Assembly (NCBI GenBank): GCA_030429705.1
Contig: JAUIES010000002.1
Location: 1-64,000, forward strand
Reading direction: 5' to 3'
Source of the DNA: Phycisphaerae bacterium
Lineage (GTDB): Bacteria; Planctomycetota; Phycisphaerae; Phycisphaerales; UBA1924
DNA: 64,000 nt
Made by a program: the position numbers and the translations under genes. Below, piece by piece: positions 4,907 through 61,636 of the stretch. Below the pieces are notes generated by a model that did no database searches, was not told where the DNA came from, and saw only the letters and a program-made list of their open reading frames with translations. How positions within the stretch are numbered: position 1 is the stretch's first letter; the number at the start of each line of letters is the position of its first letter.

Positions 4907-6517
4907 CTACATGCCGGCATTCACGTCATCCCATGACAATTCAAACTTCGCAAGGTACTTGCGAAGACGATCCGAGTCGTTCACAGACGTGCGTCGTTCT
5001 CGGGTCGCCGCGAAGAGTGTTCGACCCGCTTCAGATAGCGAATGTGATCTTTGGCAAACCTGAATGACTGCTTCGAGTTGAACGCGGTCGAAGAGGTCTA
5101 TGTTCTCGACGCTGGCAGGTCCGAGCAACCTGTTGAGTTCCGGGTGTTCACCCGCGGTGTGTTGATACCATGACCTTCTGAGCCGTTCGGTCTCCTCGGT
5201 CACAACGTCTCTGGAGATTCGGCCTCCAGGTGCAAGCGTTGCCATTCGTGTGACCGCGGCGCCAAGATCGCGAAAATTGCCCGGCCACAAACCTGCGGGC
5301 CCGATCGCGAATTCGAGGAACTGTTTTCGTGCCTCGGTGCTCAATCTGGTTTGTTGCCCGCGATCCCTCGCATATCTCTGCAGTTCAAACTCCAGGTTTG
5401 GCTCAATGTCCTCAGGGCGATCCCGAAGAGCTGGTAACTCAAAAGTCCACAGGTTGATTCGGGCGAGCAAGTCTTCGCGGAAGTCGCCGCTTCGGACTCT
5501 GCCTGCGAGATCTCTATTCGTTCCGACAATCAATTGAAAATCGCTCTGAACCTCTGAATCCGCGCCGAACGGAAGGAACTTTCGTTCTTCTATTGCTCGA
5601 AGCAGCATGGCTTGCTCGTCGAGGCCGAGTTCACCGATCTCGTCAAGAAAGAGTACTCCACCATCTGCAGAGAGCAAAAGCCCGGACCGATCTGAAGCCG
5701 CTCCGGTGAACGCGCCCTTCCTGTGACCGAAGAGCGTGGACATTGCACCATCGCCTCTTAGTGTGGCGCAATTCACTTCGATCAGATTGCCAGCAACAAG
5801 TCGACGGTGTTTTCGGAGGTCGTAGATTCGACCGGCAAGCCGCGACTTACCCGCACCTGTCGGACCGGTGATCAGCATTGGATCGGTGGTTCGTGCGGCG
5901 ACATGTTCGATACGCTCGATCAGTCGATTAAACGCTGCGTTTCTGGTTTCAATGCCGCCCTTGAGCGACGTGATTGCGTCGGTGTGCTCACGCTCGAATC
6001 TCGCGGCGAGTCGATCGTACCGGGACAGATCGAGGTCGATGATACTAAAGGACCCTAATCCATCAGCGGCCTTTCGGGGCGGGCTGGTTTGTATCAAGCG
6101 AGCGGGGAAATAGCGGGATTCTGTGAGCAGAAAGTTGCAAATCTGAGCAACATGAGTGCCGGTGGTGATATGGACCAAGTAGTCCTCTCGGTCGGTATCA
6201 AACTGATATTCGGTTGCAAACTCGTGCAGAACGCTGTAGACCTCTTCAAAGTCCCAGGGGTCGTTCATGTCAACGGTGTGCTGAACGACTTCGGTTTCGG
6301 GTGAGACCGACGCAATGTCCTCGATAATGGTCTGTGCCAATCTGGTCGCTCGTTTGCCGTGGATCAGTTCGAGTCGATCAACGACAAAGTTGTCTTGTTG
6401 ACAAAGTGAAACCGTGGGGCGCCAGCGTTCCCACCGCTTCGGACCTTTGCCGGTGTCAAGTGTTGTGCCGAGGATCCCAAAAACGACCCTCGGCCGAATT
6501 GCCAGCGTGATTGCCAT
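4907..6517 (-). CDS. rtcR: sigma-54-dependent transcriptional regulator RtcR (CARF domain, AAA+ domain, HTH)
   Basis: 536 aa. Near-collinear with E. coli RtcR: N-terminal CARF region, GPTGAGKS Walker A, GAFTGA-type loop (GAFTGAASDR), C-terminal HTH, and ADRLRKYLAKFELSW near the end. Confidence 0.92.
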   Translation of the reverse strand: MAITLAIRPRVVFGILGTTLDTGKGPKRWERWRPTVSLCQQDNFVVDRLELIHGKRATRLAQTIIEDIASVSPETEVVQHTVDMNDPWDFEEVYSVLHEFATEYQFDTDREDYLVHITTGTHVAQICNFLLTESRYFPARLIQTSPPRKAADGLGSFSIIDLDLSRYDRLAARFEREHTDAITSLKGGIETRNAAFNRLIERIEHVAARTTDPMLITGPTGAGKSRLAGRIYDLRKHRRLVAGNLIEVNCATLRGDGAMSTLFGHRKGAFTGAASDRSGLLLSADGGVLFLDEIGELGLDEQAMLLRAIEERKFLPFGADSEVQSDFQLIVGTNRDLAGRVRSGDFREDLLARINLWTFELPALRDRPEDIEPNLEFELQRYARDRGQQTRLSTEARKQFLEFAIGPAGLWPGNFRDLGAAVTRMATLAPGGRISRDVVTEETERLRRSWYQHTAGEHPELNRLLGPASVENIDLFDRVQLEAVIQVCQRSHSLSEAGRTLFAATRERRTSVNDSDRLRKYLAKFELSWDDVNAGM

Positions 6518-6667
6518 GCCGTCTCCAGTTCAATTCGATATAATCATATCGATTCTGATACATGTATATCAATATTTTATCTATCAACAATTGGATCAAA
6601 TCGCAAAATGCGAGGTTTGAGACTCCAGGAGAAGGTTTCGACGCCGATGACTGGCCTCTCGTTGGAT

Positions 6668-6684
6668 TGGCACGTCTCGTGCAT
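6668..6684 (+). promoter_or_regulatory. sigma-54 (-24/-12) promoter TGGCACG-tctc-GTGCAT driving the rtc operon
   Basis: Perfect -24 element TGGCACG. The 4-nt spacer is exact. -12 element GTGCA versus consensus TTGCW. GG/GC spacing is correct. It lies divergent from rtcR, about 35 nt upstream of a strong SD and ATG at 6718. An AT-rich region (6520-6640) upstream is a plausible enhancer/IHF zone. Confidence 0.65.
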
Positions 6685-6717
6685 AGAGCGTCCTGTTACC
6701 AACAAAGGAGACACACG

Positions 6718-6954
6718 ATGGCACACCGAACGCTCACCAAGACGCACCGCCGCCTCTCGGCAAACGAGATTCGGCGCGTATACCTCACCGAACGCACCAC
6801 GGCGGTTTCGTACTTTTGCCCATTCGGCGACGCGGAGACGGCCGTCACCGCGCATCCATTTGTCATGCCTCGCCGTCCGGCGACGCGGCGCCCGTGGGCA
6901 AGCCGCGTTTCGCGACTACGGGTTATGCCGGCAAGTCATGACATGTCGCGTTAG
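6718..6954 (+). CDS. candidate small, highly basic ORF (78 aa), first cistron of the sigma-54 transcript
   Basis: Strong SD AAAGGAGA 7 nt upstream of ATG. Arg-rich product MAHRTLTKTHRRLSANEIRR.... The stop overlaps the first 10 nt of the tRNA-Ile. Could be a GC-rich artefact. Confidence 0.25.
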   Translation: MAHRTLTKTHRRLSANEIRRVYLTERTTAVSYFCPFGDAETAVTAHPFVMPRRPATRRPWASRVSRLRVMPASHDMSR

Positions 6955-7021
6955 CTCAGATTGGTAGAGCACCGAGCTGATAACTCGGCAGTCGCCGGTT
7001 CGACTCCGGCACGCAACACCA
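6945..7021 (+). tRNA. tRNA-Ile (anticodon GAU), CCA encoded
   Basis: Cloverleaf folded by hand: D-arm GCTC/AGATTGGTA/GAGC; anticodon arm CCGAG-CTGATAA-CTCGG; variable loop CAGTC; T-arm GCCGG-TTCGACT-CCGGC; acceptor GTCGCGT/ACGCAAC with a single C3:A70 mismatch; discriminator A plus CCA. Confidence 0.75.
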
Positions 7022-7057
7022 GGCAGGCCGGGAGGCCCGGGGTTCGAATCCCCACCA
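7022..7057 (+). ncRNA. orphan tRNA T-arm-like hairpin (GGGG-TTCGAAT-CCCC followed by ACCA) immediately 3' of tRNA-Ile
   Basis: Contains CCGGG-AGG-CCCGG then GGGGTTCGAATCCCC-ACCA. No D-arm or anticodon arm. Not identical to the tRNA-Ile 3' half. Confidence 0.3.
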
Positions 7058-7434
7058 GATCTGGAATCTGGCTCATTCGTCCATGGTGGGTCGAGGGCTC
7101 ACTAAACACCTGTTTGCCGTTGAGCCAAAGACGAGTTGTGCGATCCGCGTCCAACCGTCGATGGCAAGACACCGGCAATGCAGTCTGAGGGTCGGCGGAT
7201 ACCGATGCCTCGAATGATGCCGCGCAACGCGGGCGTCTGATCTCTCTGGCGTGACCGATGGTCGTGACTTGAGTGAAAGACCACCGCGTTCAGTGAGGTA
7301 TCACGTGAGGTTTCTGAAGTCGATCCCCGCTGCGGGACCGGGTGAATAGGCGCGCGGAAGCTCTCGACTCGCATTGCAAGTTTGAAGTTTGTTTTGACTG
7401 AAGCACCTCATACACCATCGAAAGGAACGCAGTT

Positions 7435-8562
7435 ATGAGAAAGACCATTCGTATCCGTAAGCATGAACTCGGCCTGTGGTTCCGCCACGGCGATCTTTAC
7501 CGGGTCCTGGATCCGGGCGTTCACCGCGTGTGGCTCACGCCAATCGGGCACGCAGATTCATTCGAGATTGTCGACACACTGCGTCCTCAGTTTGACCACG
7601 CAAGACTGAAGACACTCGTTCGCGATGAGATACTTTCAGATCGGCTCACGATTGTTGACTTGAAAGACGAACAGCGCGCCCTCGTCTGGGCGGATGGTCG
7701 ATTGATCGCCATCCTCGGATCGGGAACGCACGCGTTCTGGAACGAACCGGCCCGGATTGAGGTTGAACTGTTCGATGTCAACGATGGTCGATTCGAACAT
7801 CCACAGGCAGAGTCGATATTGAACTTCCCCGGAGGCGTGAAGTTCTTCGATGGCGTTCGCGTTGATGCCCACGAGCGGGCCATGATTTTTCGTGATGGTG
7901 TTCTTGTTGAGCAACTGGATGCGGGGCACTATGTGTTCTGGCGTGGTGGGCCGAAGGTTAGCTGGAAGCCCGTGGATCTACGGGAGCAGGTCGCCGACAT
8001 CCAAGGACAGGAGATCATGTCCGCGGACAAGGTCACGCTACGCGTGAATCTCGTTGTGACGCACCGAGTCTTTGACCCAGCCAAGGCGGTCACGGAGGTT
8101 GCCGATTGGACGCAAACCTTGTATCGAGAGGCCCAGCTTGAGCTTCGAGTTGCCGTCGGAGGACGAACACTCGAAAGGCTGCTCGCCGACAAGGACGAGG
8201 TGGGTAGCGAGATCAAGAATCGACTCGCCAATCGTGCAGCAAAATTTGGTGTGGCGATCTCTGGGGTCGGTCTCCGCGACATCATTCTCCCCGGGGAGAT
8301 GAAAGAGATCCTCAACGAGGTGATCGTTGCGCAGAAGCAATCCGAGGCGAACCTCATCCGGCGCCGCGAGGAGACCGCTGCGGCGCGTAGTCAGGTGAAC
8401 ACAGCCAAATTGCTGGCGGAGAATCCAGTGCTCGCTCGGATGAAGGAACTCGAAGCTCTTCAGGACATCCTCAAAGGTACTGAAGCGACCTTCGTGCTTG
8501 GATCGGGTGATCTCGCGCAGCAGATTGGAAGTTTGATCCGCAAAGAGACGGCTGATTCATGA
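7435..8562 (+). CDS. slipin/SPFH (band-7, stomatin-like) family protein
   Basis: 375 aa. SPFH core (KVTLRVNLVVTHRV...EAQLELRVAVGGRTLERLL...VAISGVGLRDIILPGEMKEILNEVIVAQKQSEANLIRRREETAAARSQVNTAKLLAENPVLARMKELEALQDI). Confidence 0.85.
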   Translation: MRKTIRIRKHELGLWFRHGDLYRVLDPGVHRVWLTPIGHADSFEIVDTLRPQFDHARLKTLVRDEILSDRLTIVDLKDEQRALVWADGRLIAILGSGTHAFWNEPARIEVELFDVNDGRFEHPQAESILNFPGGVKFFDGVRVDAHERAMIFRDGVLVEQLDAGHYVFWRGGPKVSWKPVDLREQVADIQGQEIMSADKVTLRVNLVVTHRVFDPAKAVTEVADWTQTLYREAQLELRVAVGGRTLERLLADKDEVGSEIKNRLANRAAKFGVAISGVGLRDIILPGEMKEILNEVIVAQKQSEANLIRRREETAAARSQVNTAKLLAENPVLARMKELEALQDILKGTEATFVLGSGDLAQQIGSLIRKETADS

Positions 8563-8606
8563 GGCGTTCCCGCTCGCGAAAGCTGGCGGGGCGTATTTGA
8601 AATCTC

Positions 8607-8678
8607 GACCTCGTAGCTCTGTGGCAGAGCGATGTCCACATAAGGCATGTGTCGCAGGTTCGAGTCCTGCCGAAGCTA
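8607..8678 (+). ncRNA. degenerate tRNA-like element / pseudo-tRNA with CAU anticodon
   Basis: D-arm GCTC-TGTGGCA-GAGC; anticodon arm ATGTC-CACATAA-GGCAT with CAU anticodon but A33; T-arm GCAGG-TTCGAGT-CCTGC. Acceptor GACCTCG/CGAAGCT has two mismatches plus one G-U pair. No CCA. Confidence 0.5.
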
Positions 8679-8708
8679 TCAGTAAACTTATTTCGGAAGG
8701 AAATTCAC

Positions 8709-10205
8709 ATGAGCGAATCAAAGAGTCAGTTCGTTGAAACCGGAGAGGCGACCGCGATCCTCCCATTGCCGAACGGGCAGAAGCCCGTGACAGTCATCGG
8801 TACGCCTGCGATTCGCGCTACATTTGACGCAGGTTGCTTGAAGCAAACGGTCAACTCGGCAATGGCGCCAGGAGTATCTCACCTCGTGCTCAATCCCGAT
8901 GCCCACATCGGGTACGGAGCGCCGGTCGGGTGTGTGATGGCGAGTCCGACACATATCTATCCCGGGCCGGTCGGGGTCGACATCAAGTGTTCCATGAGTT
9001 TGCTCGCGGTCGATCTCGATGAAGATGCAATCCGCGACGCTCGAACGCGCCGTGCAATCATCAACGCGATCTGTGAGCGCACGCCGACCGGTACTGGAAA
9101 AGGCCAGCGCAGTGTTCCGATGTCGCGAAGTGTCTCGGATCTTCTCGGGTTTCAAGTTGTCACTGAAGGCGCAACCGAATCGGTGTGCAACGCGCTGGGT
9201 ATTCCTCCAGCATGGGCGGATCGTTGTGAAGACAGCCAGCATTCGGGACATGATGGGACGACAGATGCGCTGCGGGCGCGCCTCGAACTGCATCGGCAAA
9301 ACGGCCGATTCGACGAACGATTCCCAAGTAAGATCCGTCAACTCGGTTCCTACGGAGGTGGGAACCACTTCGGTGAGTGCGAAGTTGTGCGCGTTGGCGA
9401 AGGAGATCGTGCTCGACAGGCGGCAGAAGTGTTCGGCCTCCGCGACGGTGGCGTTGCGTTTCTTTCGCACTGTGGTTCACGAGGCCTTGGGCATGACTTG
9501 GCAGCGGGTCAGTTCAAGTCGCTTGAGCAGCATTTCACGCAGTGGGGTATCCCATTGCCCGGCGGCGACAAGCAACTCGTCCACGCACCTCTCGGCAGTG
9601 ACGAAGCCAACAGCTATCTCGACGACATGGCGATTGGTGCCAACTTCGCGACGGTGAATCATTTGCTCATCAACGCGCTCGTCCTCGAAGCATTTCAAAC
9701 GGTTTTTCCCGGAGTGGATGGGCGTCTCGTGTACTTTATCAGCCACAACATCGCGCGAGAAGAGATCGTGGACAACACGCCGCAGTGGGTGCATCGGAAG
9801 GGCGCAACTCGGGCTTTCCCGGGCGGGCATCACGCGCTCAAAAGTACACCGTTCGAATCGACTGGGCATCCGATCCTGCTTCCGGGGAATCCGCAGGCGG
9901 GCTCGGCGGTGATGGTCGCGAATGCTGGCGCAGAAGCTTCGTGTTTCAGTGTCAACCATGGCGCGGGCCGCGTCATGGGTCGTAAGGCGGCGAAGCGAGC
10001 GCTCGACCAAGATGCAATCGACGCATCGTTCGAAGACCGAGACATTCTGACCAATTGTCGGAACTACCCGGTCGACGAAGCGCCAGCAGCGTACAAGGAT
10101 TTTGATGAAGTGCTCCGATCAGTCGAACTTGCAGGACTTGCGAGTGAAGTCGCAAGACTCGATGCTAGGTTTGTCATTAAGGATGGAGACAAAGCGGATG
10201 ATTAA
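8709..10205 (+). CDS. rtcB: RNA-splicing ligase RtcB
   Basis: Motifs collinear with E. coli RtcB: HIGYGAPVGCV, GVDIKCSM, SYGGGNHFGECE, HCGSRGLGH, FSVNHGAGRVMGRKAAKRAL, PAAYKDFDEV. Start chosen at ATG 8709 (SD GGAAGGA). The upstream in-frame GTG at 8649 lies inside the tRNA-like element. Confidence 0.95.
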   Translation: MSESKSQFVETGEATAILPLPNGQKPVTVIGTPAIRATFDAGCLKQTVNSAMAPGVSHLVLNPDAHIGYGAPVGCVMASPTHIYPGPVGVDIKCSMSLLAVDLDEDAIRDARTRRAIINAICERTPTGTGKGQRSVPMSRSVSDLLGFQVVTEGATESVCNALGIPPAWADRCEDSQHSGHDGTTDALRARLELHRQNGRFDERFPSKIRQLGSYGGGNHFGECEVVRVGEGDRARQAAEVFGLRDGGVAFLSHCGSRGLGHDLAAGQFKSLEQHFTQWGIPLPGGDKQLVHAPLGSDEANSYLDDMAIGANFATVNHLLINALVLEAFQTVFPGVDGRLVYFISHNIAREEIVDNTPQWVHRKGATRAFPGGHHALKSTPFESTGHPILLPGNPQAGSAVMVANAGAEASCFSVNHGAGRVMGRKAAKRALDQDAIDASFEDRDILTNCRNYPVDEAPAAYKDFDEVLRSVELAGLASEVARLDARFVIKDGDKADD

Positions 10206-11217
10206 CATCGACGGCAGTCAAGGTGAGGGGGGCGGACAGGTATTGCGCACCTCTCTCGCATTATCGACAGTAACCGGTATGCCATTTCGAATTGAGAGCA
10301 TACGGGCAGGCCGTCCCAGGCCAGGTCTGATGCGGCAGCACTTGACATCGGTTCAGGCCGCATGTGCGGTATGCAGCGGTACGGCTGCTGGAGCCGAGTT
10401 GGGTTCGAGTACTCTTGAGTTCACACCCGGCGAGGTGCGTGGGGGGGACTACGCATTCGCGATTGGAACGGCGGGCAGCACTACGCTTGTTTTGCAGACA
10501 ATACTGCCCGCATTGATGACCGCGCGAGGCCCTTCGACTATAACCATATCCGGCGGAACGCACAACATGCATGCACCGACTGTACACTTTCTTGAACGTG
10601 CATTCCTTCCAATAGTGCGCCGGATGGGACCGTCAGTATGTATTGATCTGCTGCGACATGGTTTCCATCCGGCCGGCGGTGGCGTGATATGTGTCAATAT
10701 AGAACCGGTGCTTCGATTGCAACCCATCGAGTTGCTTGACGCAGCGCCTGTCACCGCACGACGTGCCATCGTGACAATCTCTGGTCTACCGGGTTCGATC
10801 GCAAAGCGGGAATTGGCGGTCGTTCGCAATGAGCTCGGTTGGTCGAAAGAATGCCTGCAGATCAATCAGATCAGCGACGAGGCGGGGCCGGGAAACATTT
10901 TGAGCATAGAGATCGAACGCGAAGATTTGACCGAGGTATTTACGGGTTTTGGCGAGCGCGGCGTGTCCGCGGAGCGAGTCGCAGCGAGGACGATCAAGGA
11001 AGTGCGGCGATATCTGGATTCAAATGTACTTGTTTGGCGTCATCTCGCGGACCAGTTGATGCTACCCATGGCGATTGCGGGAGGAGGGGCCTTTCAGACC
11101 TGTTCACTCAGCGATCATGCAACAACAAACGCAAAGGTGATCGAGTCGTTCCTGAGCTTGAAACTCCAAAGTGATGATAACGATGATGGAACATGCTGTG
11201 TGAGGATTCTCAGTTAG
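10198..11217 (+). CDS. rtcA: RNA 3'-terminal phosphate cyclase RtcA
   Basis: 339 aa starting MINIDGSQGEGGGQVLRTSLALS, collinear with RtcA. Start overlaps the rtcB stop in ATGATTAA (translational coupling). Confidence 0.9.
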   Translation: MINIDGSQGEGGGQVLRTSLALSTVTGMPFRIESIRAGRPRPGLMRQHLTSVQAACAVCSGTAAGAELGSSTLEFTPGEVRGGDYAFAIGTAGSTTLVLQTILPALMTARGPSTITISGGTHNMHAPTVHFLERAFLPIVRRMGPSVCIDLLRHGFHPAGGGVICVNIEPVLRLQPIELLDAAPVTARRAIVTISGLPGSIAKRELAVVRNELGWSKECLQINQISDEAGPGNILSIEIEREDLTEVFTGFGERGVSAERVAARTIKEVRRYLDSNVLVWRHLADQLMLPMAIAGGGAFQTCSLSDHATTNAKVIESFLSLKLQSDDNDDGTCCVRILS

Positions 11218-12002
11218 AATCGCGAGCAGAGCACCTCACACGCACCCAAAGTTGACTTTTTCAGCCCATAGTAAATGCAGACAACGCGCGTGGGGACCGA
11301 TTATCAAGCCCGGCTCCAGCATTGTGTGATTGGGGTGTTGGTATCGGTACCATTCGATCCGGCTTCCAATCCTGAACTAGAGGTTAGACGAGCCTTACCA
11401 ATTGCCGGACAGTGGTATCGAAAACCAATCCAACTACCCACTCCCGAGATGATCGGCGCCATCGATGACAATGCAAGGGATCTGGTAACACGCTCCAGGT
11501 TTTGCCGCAGTGGCTGGCGTGGCGGTCGGGTGGGCTTCGTAGCCCTCAAGGGATTGACCTCGCGAGAACAGATCACAGCTCTCCGCTGAATATCGCGGGT
11601 CCGACGCGGTAAGAGATGATCGGCAGCGGGCTACTCTCACGCACGCGGTCGGTGTGCAGGTTTGAGCGTGACGCGGAGTTGGACTCGCCAAGCGCGGCCG
11701 CTGGCCTAGACACCGGCCGCCGCGCACACGGCTTAGTCGAATGGTGAAACGCGAAGGGCAAGACGCTCGACGAAGTGTACCATCAGCTGGATTCACACCA
11801 AACTCGAAACTGGATCCCAAGAGCACCCACATCCGAACCCCGTCGTTAACCGAGGCCTCGCGCTCTCTGTTTCGGAGTGAGAGCGCAGCCGCTCAAATCA
11901 CCGAGACTCTAAATTTGGCATCGTGGCTAGCGATCTCAATTCAACTACGAGAACCAAATCACCCCCCACAGGCGTTCAGTGGGGGCGGTGTTCCAGCTCT
12001 CC

Positions 12003-12040: not shown

Positions 12041-12046
12041 TTGAAG

Positions 12047-12118
12047 CTCCCCGAGTAGGACTCGAACCTACAACCTAGCGGTTAACAGCCGCTCGCTCTA
12101 CCATTGAGCTATCGGGGA
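12047..12118 (-). tRNA. tRNA-Asn (anticodon GUU), CCA not encoded
   Basis: Reverse complement folds: acceptor TCCCCGA/TCGGGGA; D-arm GCTC-AATGGTA-GAGC; anticodon arm AGCGG-CTGTTAA-CCGCT; T-arm GTAGG-TTCGAGT-CCTAC; discriminator G. Confidence 0.8.
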
Positions 12119-61594: not shown

Positions 61595-61636
61595 AAGTCG
61601 AAAGACACAACTTGGCTTGGCACGCATAATGCTTTC

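Follow-up and report, generated by a model that had tools for sequence, protein, structure and literature searches.

A probable Band-7/b7a-tRNA-type RNA-repair operon under RtcR/sigma-54 control in a Phycisphaerae bacterium

In some bacteria, the RNA ligase RtcB is encoded beside a Band-7 protein and a predicted RNA, b7a-tRNA, that strongly resembles tRNA (Burroughs and Aravind 2016, as summarised by Wang et al. 2018, 10.1101/312249). The same summary views the Band-7/b7a-tRNA pair as functionally parallel to Ro60/YrlA. In Salmonella, RtcR binds 5' tRNA halves with 2',3'-cyclic phosphate ends and then oligomerises (Hughes et al. 2020, PMC7790460). Arrays of tRNA genes (L-arrays) have been noted in Planctomycetes; in Anabaena, translational stress induces the array, which shares its regulation with rtcB, and a sponge role has been proposed for the Anabaena operon tRNAs (Santamaria-Gomez et al. 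2021, PMC8421152). That paper mentions neither slipin/SPFH proteins nor a terminal tRNA-like element. Here we analyse an rtcBA locus that encodes a slipin (a Band-7 protein) and a tRNA-like RNA, found in a 64,000-nt stretch of DNA (the window; positions 1–64,000 of contig JAUIES010000002.1, assembly GCA_030429705.1) from a Phycisphaerae bacterium. We place the probability that it is an RtcR/sigma-54-controlled RNA-repair operon of the Band-7/b7a-tRNA type, working by the mechanism proposed below, at roughly 60%. The genome-based prediction of this kind of cluster dates from 2016, and both its architecture and the Ro60/Y-RNA analogy are already published. A first-pass annotation of the sequence had reached the same idea and knew of no report of the tRNA-like elements. 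It is right in outline and amounts to a rediscovery, because Wang et al. (10.1101/312249) already give both the b7a-tRNA prediction and the parallel between Band-7/b7a-tRNA/RtcB and Ro60/YrlA.

The plus strand carries, in order, a sigma-54 promoter, a possible leader open reading frame (ORF), a tRNA-shaped RNA, a long leader, the slipin gene, a decayed tRNA gene, rtcB and rtcA, with rtcR divergent from the operon (Table 1). Every element listed in the first-pass annotation was recovered at its place by Pfam, ARAGORN, Rfam or direct reading, and its description of an RtcR/sigma-54 rtcBA operon held for the protein identities, the divergent regulator, the promoter and the overlap of rtcB with rtcA. 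The rtcR product also matches the PADLOC model RtcR--CARF_AAA_HTH at 3e-256; a defence-system scan returned no match to a known system except RtcR. The rtcB gene starts 147 nt 3' of slipin, so that the Band-7 gene adjoins the RtcB gene. Read directly from the sequence, the rtcA start overlaps the rtcB stop in ATGATTAA, and the end of rtcB and the start of rtcA both fall within GATGATTAA. An independent Logan assembly holds an identical copy of the locus (contig L081), in which the rtcB start is called at the same position. Because the same order of elements was found again in independent genomes, the layout goes beyond chance.

Table 1. Features of the slipin/rtcBA locus (window coordinates).
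Feature	Position	Strand	Description and support
rtcR	4907–6517	-	CARF plus sigma-54-dependent activator; Pfam RtcR/CARF 8e-84, Sigma54_activat 1e-45, AAA_lid_14
Sigma-54 (-24/-12) promoter	6668–6683	+	TGGCACgtctcGTGCA; consensus TGGCAC-N5-GTGCA
Small basic ORF	6718–6954	+	78 aa; 15 K+R vs 5 D+E; AGGAG Shine-Dalgarno (SD) 7 nt upstream
Conserved GC-rich block	6860–6934	+	CGACGCGGC...GCCGCG hairpin; CGGGTTMTGCCGG; directly 5' of tRNA-like element
b7a-type tRNA-like RNA	6945–7021	+	ARAGORN tRNA-Ile(GAU); Rfam tRNA 63.8 bits
Second tRNA-like half-module	7026–7071	+	Fold; paired T-loops conserved in relatives
Half-module, first hairpin	7026–7037	+	GGCC-GGGA-GGCC
Half-module, T-arm	7039–7053	+	GGGGTTCGAATCCCC
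Half-module, last hairpin	7055–7071	+	CCAGAU-CUGGA-AUCUGG
Invariant motif	7197–7204	+	GGAUACCG; conserved GCACCG block precedes
slipin	7435–8562	+	375 aa; Pfam Band_7 1e-31
GAAA-capped hairpin, then UAUUU	8564–8594	+	Directly 3' of slipin stop; minimum free energy (MFE) -19.1 kcal/mol, z -2.7
Degenerate tRNA-Met(CAU)-like element (pseudo-tRNA)	8607–8678	+	ARAGORN; Rfam tRNA 41.3 bits
rtcB	8709–10205	+	RNA ligase (3'-phosphate/2',3'-cyclic phosphate to 5'-OH); Pfam RtcB 5e-101
rtcA	10198–11217	+	RNA 3'-phosphate cyclase; Pfam RTC 2e-76 and RTC_insert

The sigma-54 consensus is matched twice in the 64 kb, against 0.48 matches expected. The second match, at 61618, sits between convergent genes and was set aside as chance. 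Every RtcR-bearing relative has a sigma-54 site in the interval from rtcR to the tRNA-like element (equivalent sites in loci L001, L008, L025, L044, L068, L083–L085, L088, L090, L093, L105 and L110), and the order of promoter, tRNA-like element and slipin is kept in all of them. This part of the arrangement proposed at first, with a slipin and a tRNA-like RNA in place of the Ro60 and Y RNAs of Salmonella, is therefore conserved; the number of tRNAs downstream of slipin is not, and varies from 0 to 7. We looked for a sigma-70-like promoter 5' of each tRNA-like element in the window and found none.

To follow the tRNA-like element across genomes, we fetched 113 loci encoding slipin homologues (36–84% identity). 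Positional counts use the 90 non-redundant loci with enough upstream sequence, and the alignment (A2) comprises 59 elements. Single-sequence MFE folding returned a cloverleaf for neither tRNA-like element of the window and gave weak z-scores (-1.7 and -0.9), and covariance models and covariation were used for these elements instead. In 82/90 loci, slipin is preceded at a distance of 240–650 nt by a T-loop motif on its own strand, and T-loop and D-arm motifs are both found upstream in 70/90. The D-arm (UAGCUCA..GG..UAGAGC) and T-loop are invariant across the alignment, while pairing reaches 98.6% in the anticodon stem and 100% in the T stem, with many compensatory changes. The covariation score was 0.50; shuffles scored 0.16, and slid partners no more than 0.12. 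Conservation of the acceptor stem is confined to its inner 3–4 pairs, the outer three being unpaired in 37–44 of the 59 elements.

The anticodon behaves differently from the body. The 59 elements show 53 distinct anticodon loops, and loop lengths of 5, 6 and 8 nt occur beside that of 7 nt; in the 7-nt loops, Y32 (100%), U33 (76%), R37 (96%) and A38 (76%) are favored. There are 27 different anticodons, A34 occurs in 13/51, and the entropy of the triplet is near maximal at 1.8–2.0 bits. Among the closest relatives, the body is nearly identical and the loop differs. At the orthologous position, the window, L083 and L085 have Ile(GAU), L008 has Cys(GCA), L084 and L110 have Asn, L093 has Gly, L105 has Ile(UAU), and L001, L082 and L090 have abnormal loops. 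The GAU anticodon is thus not conserved in related genomes, and the initial view of the element as a genuine-looking tRNA-Ile does not survive the comparison with orthologs whose anticodons are different or impossible. The position relative to slipin is fixed with or without a tRNA array, and the body sequence is common across phyla. The element is still present at slipin loci without an array or RtcB, and its pairing with slipin recurs in Acidobacteriota, Verrucomicrobiota, Desulfobacterota and Burkholderia. Since the anticodon drifts freely and the outer acceptor stem has been lost while the tRNA body and loop architecture are kept, the family is best described, from its sequences, as a predicted tRNA mimic and not a decoder. 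By the same evidence, the Ile identity of the window element is incidental for the family as a whole.

The window copy has a C3–A70 mismatch, 6/7 acceptor pairs, canonical D, T and anticodon loops (CUGAUAA), and A73 followed by an encoded CCA. It scores 79.8 bits with a covariance model (R1) built from the elements beside 59 other slipin genes. Because R1 also gives ordinary tRNAs high scores (73 bits for the tRNA-Asn of the window), it cannot tell mimics from tRNAs; position and anticodon behavior do. CCA is encoded in 7/59 mimics versus 11/352 array tRNAs. In the window, the mimic has it (7018–7021) and the tRNA-Asn gene (12046–12118) does not. The 64 kb contain no rRNA operon and no other tRNA-Ile. 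In Burkholderia cenocepacia (L116, 4464–4729), a sigma-54 promoter, a minihelix-like element (acceptor stem plus T-arm) and a tRNA-like element lie upstream of a slipin homologue; the anticodon arm of this tRNA-like element, GCCGGC-GAAA-GCCGGC, ends in a GAAA tetraloop and has no anticodon loop.

We propose that 2',3'-cyclic-phosphate tRNA halves would activate RtcR, by parallel with Salmonella, and that the operon RNA would then be made, its tRNA-like part being either excised or retained as a folded 5' domain. This RNA may associate with slipin oligomers that serve as a scaffold for handling the tRNA-shaped substrates of RtcB and RtcA, in parallel to Ro60 and its Y RNA. In sister lineages, the same transcript would also supply replacement tRNAs, a function that here would have decayed to one pseudo-tRNA.

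Several points weigh against this proposal. The window copy is more tRNA-like than the family norm and could still be charged and used as tRNA-Ile, given its 6/7 acceptor pairs, canonical CUGAUAA loop, A73 and CCA. A free anticodon fits relaxed constraint as well as it fits any specific role. Contact between slipin and the RNA is predicted from gene adjacency only, and b7a-tRNA itself was without experimental validation as of 2018, according to Wang et al. (10.1101/312249). In Pseudomonas aeruginosa, deletion of the rtc-embedded SPFH gene PaFlo8 (PA14_60630) gave no phenotype in assays of growth, virulence, motility, biofilm and oxidative stress, a study in which no RNA element was considered (PMC13086221). 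Activation by tRNA halves, for its part, would carry over to the RtcR of the window by homology only.

The variable anticodon could instead mark the element as a bait or sensor, cut by anticodon-loop nucleases so that its 5' halves with 2',3'-cyclic phosphate feed RtcR in a feed-forward manner, and/or soaking up toxins, with the anticodon tracking the toxins of each lineage. We consider this unlikely, if worth stating. Near-maximal anticodon entropy together with retention of the loop-shaping positions 32, 33, 37 and 38 would suit such a target, RtcR recognises 5' halves of tRNAs that have been cleaved within the anticodon loop (PMC7790460), and the sponge role proposed for the Anabaena operon tRNAs (PMC8421152) is in the same spirit. 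However, the element lies downstream of an RtcR-dependent promoter and would be scarce before induction. A nuclease bait would also not tolerate the GAAA tetraloop of the Burkholderia member or the 5–6-nt loops of others, and the anticodon is no more variable than other unconstrained positions.

The tRNA-like element is the first part of a conserved leader, about 480 nt long, in which a second T-arm module and the invariant GGAUACCG follow. The second T-loop follows the first by 42–69 nt in Phycisphaerae-type loci and is conserved in about 20 relatives. The module consists of a 4–6-bp hairpin with a GNRA or similar loop, then a T-arm, and usually then a CCAGA...UCUGG hairpin. The first hairpin changes completely in sequence between genomes and keeps its pairing, i.e., it covaries. 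What had been called an orphan T-arm is therefore a conserved, covarying module of the leader. Further downstream, GGATACC occurs between -420 and -140 of slipin in 43/90 non-redundant loci versus 1.5 expected, in Planctomycetota and Acidobacteriota alike. RNAalifold gave no consensus structure around GGAUACCG; two mutually exclusive small hairpins can form there, each fitting only some clades. Further GGAUACCG sites are found, for example, at L048 5753–5760 and L061 856–863. No Rfam family covers the leader modules in a scan of 6400–8800.

At the 5' end of the transcript, the stop codon (TAG) of the small basic ORF falls within the D-stem of the tRNA-like element. Homologues were found only in L008 (60%), L001 (45%) and L082 (C-terminal part), and the ORF is kept with its SD in four close genomes only. 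All indels among these are in frame, and the excess of changes at third codon positions is weak. Members of the L083/L090/L093/L105 clade have these nucleotides in other reading frames. The GC-rich block, which overlaps the 3' part of the ORF, is conserved at the nucleotide level in the window and in L001, L003–L006 and L008. The translation (6718–6951) matched no Pfam family. Taken together, the coding status of this ORF is uncertain.

These features bear on a purely cis-acting explanation, in which the tRNA-like fold and the leader serve to process the slipin mRNA or control its translation (by RNase P/Z punctuation, stabilisation of the message or coupling to the leader ORF) and have no function as a free RNA. 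We judge this improbable, on a par with the nuclease target. The element is always on the slipin strand, 240–650 nt upstream, in a conserved leader with the invariant GGAUACCG; the leader ORF terminates inside the D-stem; and a conserved hairpin follows slipin, all of which would suit a cis role. Yet a processing signal needs no invariant D-arm and T-loop and no covarying anticodon stem across phyla, the outer acceptor stem required by RNase P is the least conserved part of the element, and the leader ORF is limited to four close relatives.

The hairpin directly 3' of slipin is conserved with compensatory changes in L082, L083, L084 and L001. It could act in weak termination or attenuation, or mark a processing site that separates slipin from the tRNA/rtcB portion of the transcript. 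Beyond it lies the CAU element, which has A33 in place of U, two mismatched acceptor pairs plus a G–U, and no CCA. It aligns with the intact tRNA-Met(CAU) genes of L082, L084 and L008 (57–64 bits), and L001 carries a further-decayed remnant at the same position. Sister operons hold 0–7 tRNA genes between slipin and rtcB (Met, Pro, Leu, Arg, His, Phe, Asp), which mostly score 47–71 bits, with one at 30.5 (Arg(ACG) in L085). From these alignments, the CAU element is, by all appearances, a decaying ordinary tRNA gene from a variable run of tRNAs. The first-pass annotation had matched the two elements of the window with each other and assigned both to Y-RNA positions; as a degenerate remnant, the downstream element drops out of that pair.

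Given such a remnant, both elements might be nothing more than leftovers of a stress-induced tRNA array, one a usable tRNA-Ile and the other a dead tRNA-Met, with no special link to slipin. Relatives do carry 1–7 normal tRNAs in the operon and 20–40 in arrays, and the window copy retains a canonical Ile anticodon loop, A73 and CCA. This explanation is nonetheless hard to sustain for the upstream element, whose position is fixed relative to slipin regardless of any array, whose single body recurs across phyla while the anticodon changes, and which is kept at slipin loci without an array or RtcB. Moreover, A34 is present in 13/51 anticodons, and several loops are not 7 nt long. We therefore regard it as decidedly improbable.

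A divergent Ro60/Y-RNA system with true YrlA/YrlB homologues, which the shared operon logic and regulator of Salmonella rsr-yrlBA-rtcBA might suggest, is refuted as a matter of family membership and scarcely credible, since no TROVE/Ro60 protein is among the operon products (Pfam matches are RtcR, Band_7, RtcB and RTC only), no long Ro-binding stem forms from the 5' and 3' ends, and the Rfam scan proposed in the first-pass annotation, run over 6400–8800 at E up to 10, matched the tRNA model to both elements and otherwise gave chance matches only, with no Y RNA; the functional analogy remains.

The protein partner in the preferred Band-7/b7a-tRNA reading is the slipin, whose nearest relatives come from metagenome-assembled genomes of Phycisphaerales/Planctomycetota. 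Its AlphaFold2 model (predicted local distance difference test score 81.7) contains three 4–5-stranded beta units (about residues 1–47, 71–114 and 138–181), a stomatin-type SPFH core and a long C-terminal helix. The three N-terminal units are sequence repeats, such that the N-terminal half (7435–7980, residues 1–181) is a triplicated beta-meander resembling the first strands of an SPFH domain; the SPFH core and the C-terminal oligomerisation helix are both present. A search for an N-terminal hydrophobic membrane anchor found none, the best 19-residue Kyte–Doolittle window reaching 1.17. Repeats, SPFH core and long helix follow one another as they do in cage-forming SPFH proteins. Because solved SPFH proteins form closed oligomeric cages, it is a reasonable inference from the model that the slipin forms a soluble cage or ring. 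The layout of the modeled protein also recalls that of the major vault protein. We looked for a downstream partner gene of slipin conserved outside the rtc clade and did not find one. A phage origin of the slipin was rejected: none of 50,697 phage records contained a homologue, and IMG/VR yielded just 4.

Many slipin homologues are physically linked to tRNA genes. Over the 113 loci (941 kb), ARAGORN assigned 541 tRNA or tRNA-like genes to the slipin strand and 6 to the opposite one. At least five tRNA genes are present at 28/113 loci and 20–39 at 10/113 (L004, L007, L031, L037, L041, L048, L049, L052, L056 and L073; see also L008 7220–7835), and hardly any anticodon is repeated within an array. 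In these other Planctomycetota, slipin and the mimic are located inside or at the end of the array, which also holds an HNH endonuclease and a divergent RtcB, with RlaP nearby at some loci. The window operon, with two tRNA-like elements only, is below the L-array level of at least 20 same-strand tRNA genes. Our literature search found no paper linking slipin to tRNA arrays. At Pirellulales-type loci, a tRNA-Cys(GCA) gene usually stands immediately 5' of the mimic.

This linkage invites a more ambitious and tentative proposal, which we think possible but on balance doubtful: slipin and the mimic could be a dedicated organiser of inducible spare-tRNA islands. A soluble, vault-like SPFH cage, loaded via the tRNA-shaped RNA, whose anticodon would not matter, would hold or triage tRNAs, passing damaged ones to RtcB/RtcA and taking in replacements from the linked arrays. 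By sensing tRNA damage, RtcR would then set off repair of the tRNA pool as well as its replenishment. GGAUACCG could be a docking site for the slipin or for a tRNA.

A related arrangement is common in E. coli, where about 1625/5426 complete genomes (about 30%) combine slipin and RlaP with a sigma-54 promoter and a leader that contains a T-arm. The slipin and the RlaP nucleotidyltransferase are paired between yjbD and lysC (L115, CP061233.1, 5687–5829 and 6001–7925; also L117). TGGCACgcttcTCGCA and a T-arm (TGGGTTCGATTCCCA) lie 5' of the pair, and RefSeq annotates no RNA there. In E. coli strain WAT, which has this set of elements at NZ_CP012380.1 4473553–4476006, a zeta-toxin gene adjoins the pair.

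Other observations concern the flanks of the operon. The spacer between rtcR and the operon (6520–6600) is AT-rich and has several GATA-N-TATC-like short inverted motifs, as does the similar spacer of L001; judged by sequence, these are possible RtcR binding sites. A repeat finder run on 6500–6700 for RtcR binding sites returned nothing. A sigma-70-like promoter for rtcR lies at 6572–6543 on the minus strand. L008 has a tRNA-Tyr(GUA) gene (5093–5181) between rtcR and the sigma-54 promoter, and hence outside the RtcR-driven transcript. The two closest full-length relatives, L001 (5243–6505) and L082 (6967–8514), have a gene for a BCS1-like AAA+ ATPase between rtcB and rtcA that the window lacks. 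Just past rtcA, a 104-aa ORF (11275–11589) has no Pfam match; gene calling on the identical Logan contig picks it up too.

To the questions of what bacterial RtcB ligases repair, and what roles their conserved neighbors play, this locus adds a clean slipin/tRNA-mimic example. Together with the survey around it, it offers three testable handles: a tRNA mimic with a free anticodon, a physical link to tRNA arrays of 20–40 genes across Planctomycetota, and a sigma-54 slipin–RlaP version in E. coli, where genetics are easy. Should the slipin prove to be a cage that binds RNA, the known roles of SPFH proteins would extend to a cytoplasmic one away from membranes, in an RNA–protein complex. Of these results, the link to tRNA arrays, the extended leader and the version found in E. 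coli most deserve follow-up.

Compared with known systems, the locus lies closest to the Band-7/b7a-tRNA/RtcB system. As with that system in the summary by Wang et al., the window has a Band-7 gene beside RtcB, an RNA resembling tRNA and a pairing of the two that recurs across lineages, and nothing defining differs. With Salmonella rsr-yrlBA-rtcBA (PMC7790460), it has in common RtcR (CARF plus AAA+), sigma-54, a protein and a tRNA-mimicking RNA upstream of rtcB–rtcA, and the likely signal, tRNA halves with 2',3'-cyclic phosphate. In contrast to Salmonella, the window has a slipin for Ro60/TROVE; its RNA is a near-complete cloverleaf and not a Y RNA with a Ro-binding stem, and precedes the protein gene as part of a long leader; and its second RNA is a decayed tRNA gene. 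Relatives of the window are like L-arrays (PMC8421152) in having 20–40 same-strand tRNA genes, almost no repeated anticodons, an embedded HNH endonuclease and an RtcB, whereas the window itself has one mimic and one pseudo-tRNA under RtcR/sigma-54 control instead of promoter direct repeats. PaFlo8 is likened to the slipin by gene setting, as an SPFH gene inside an rtcR–rtcB–rtcA locus, and not by sequence. Finally, the vault particle, made of the major vault protein and vault RNA, resembles the modeled slipin in its layout of beta repeats, an SPFH-like domain and a long helix, and is soluble and linked to a small structured RNA, as the slipin is predicted to be.

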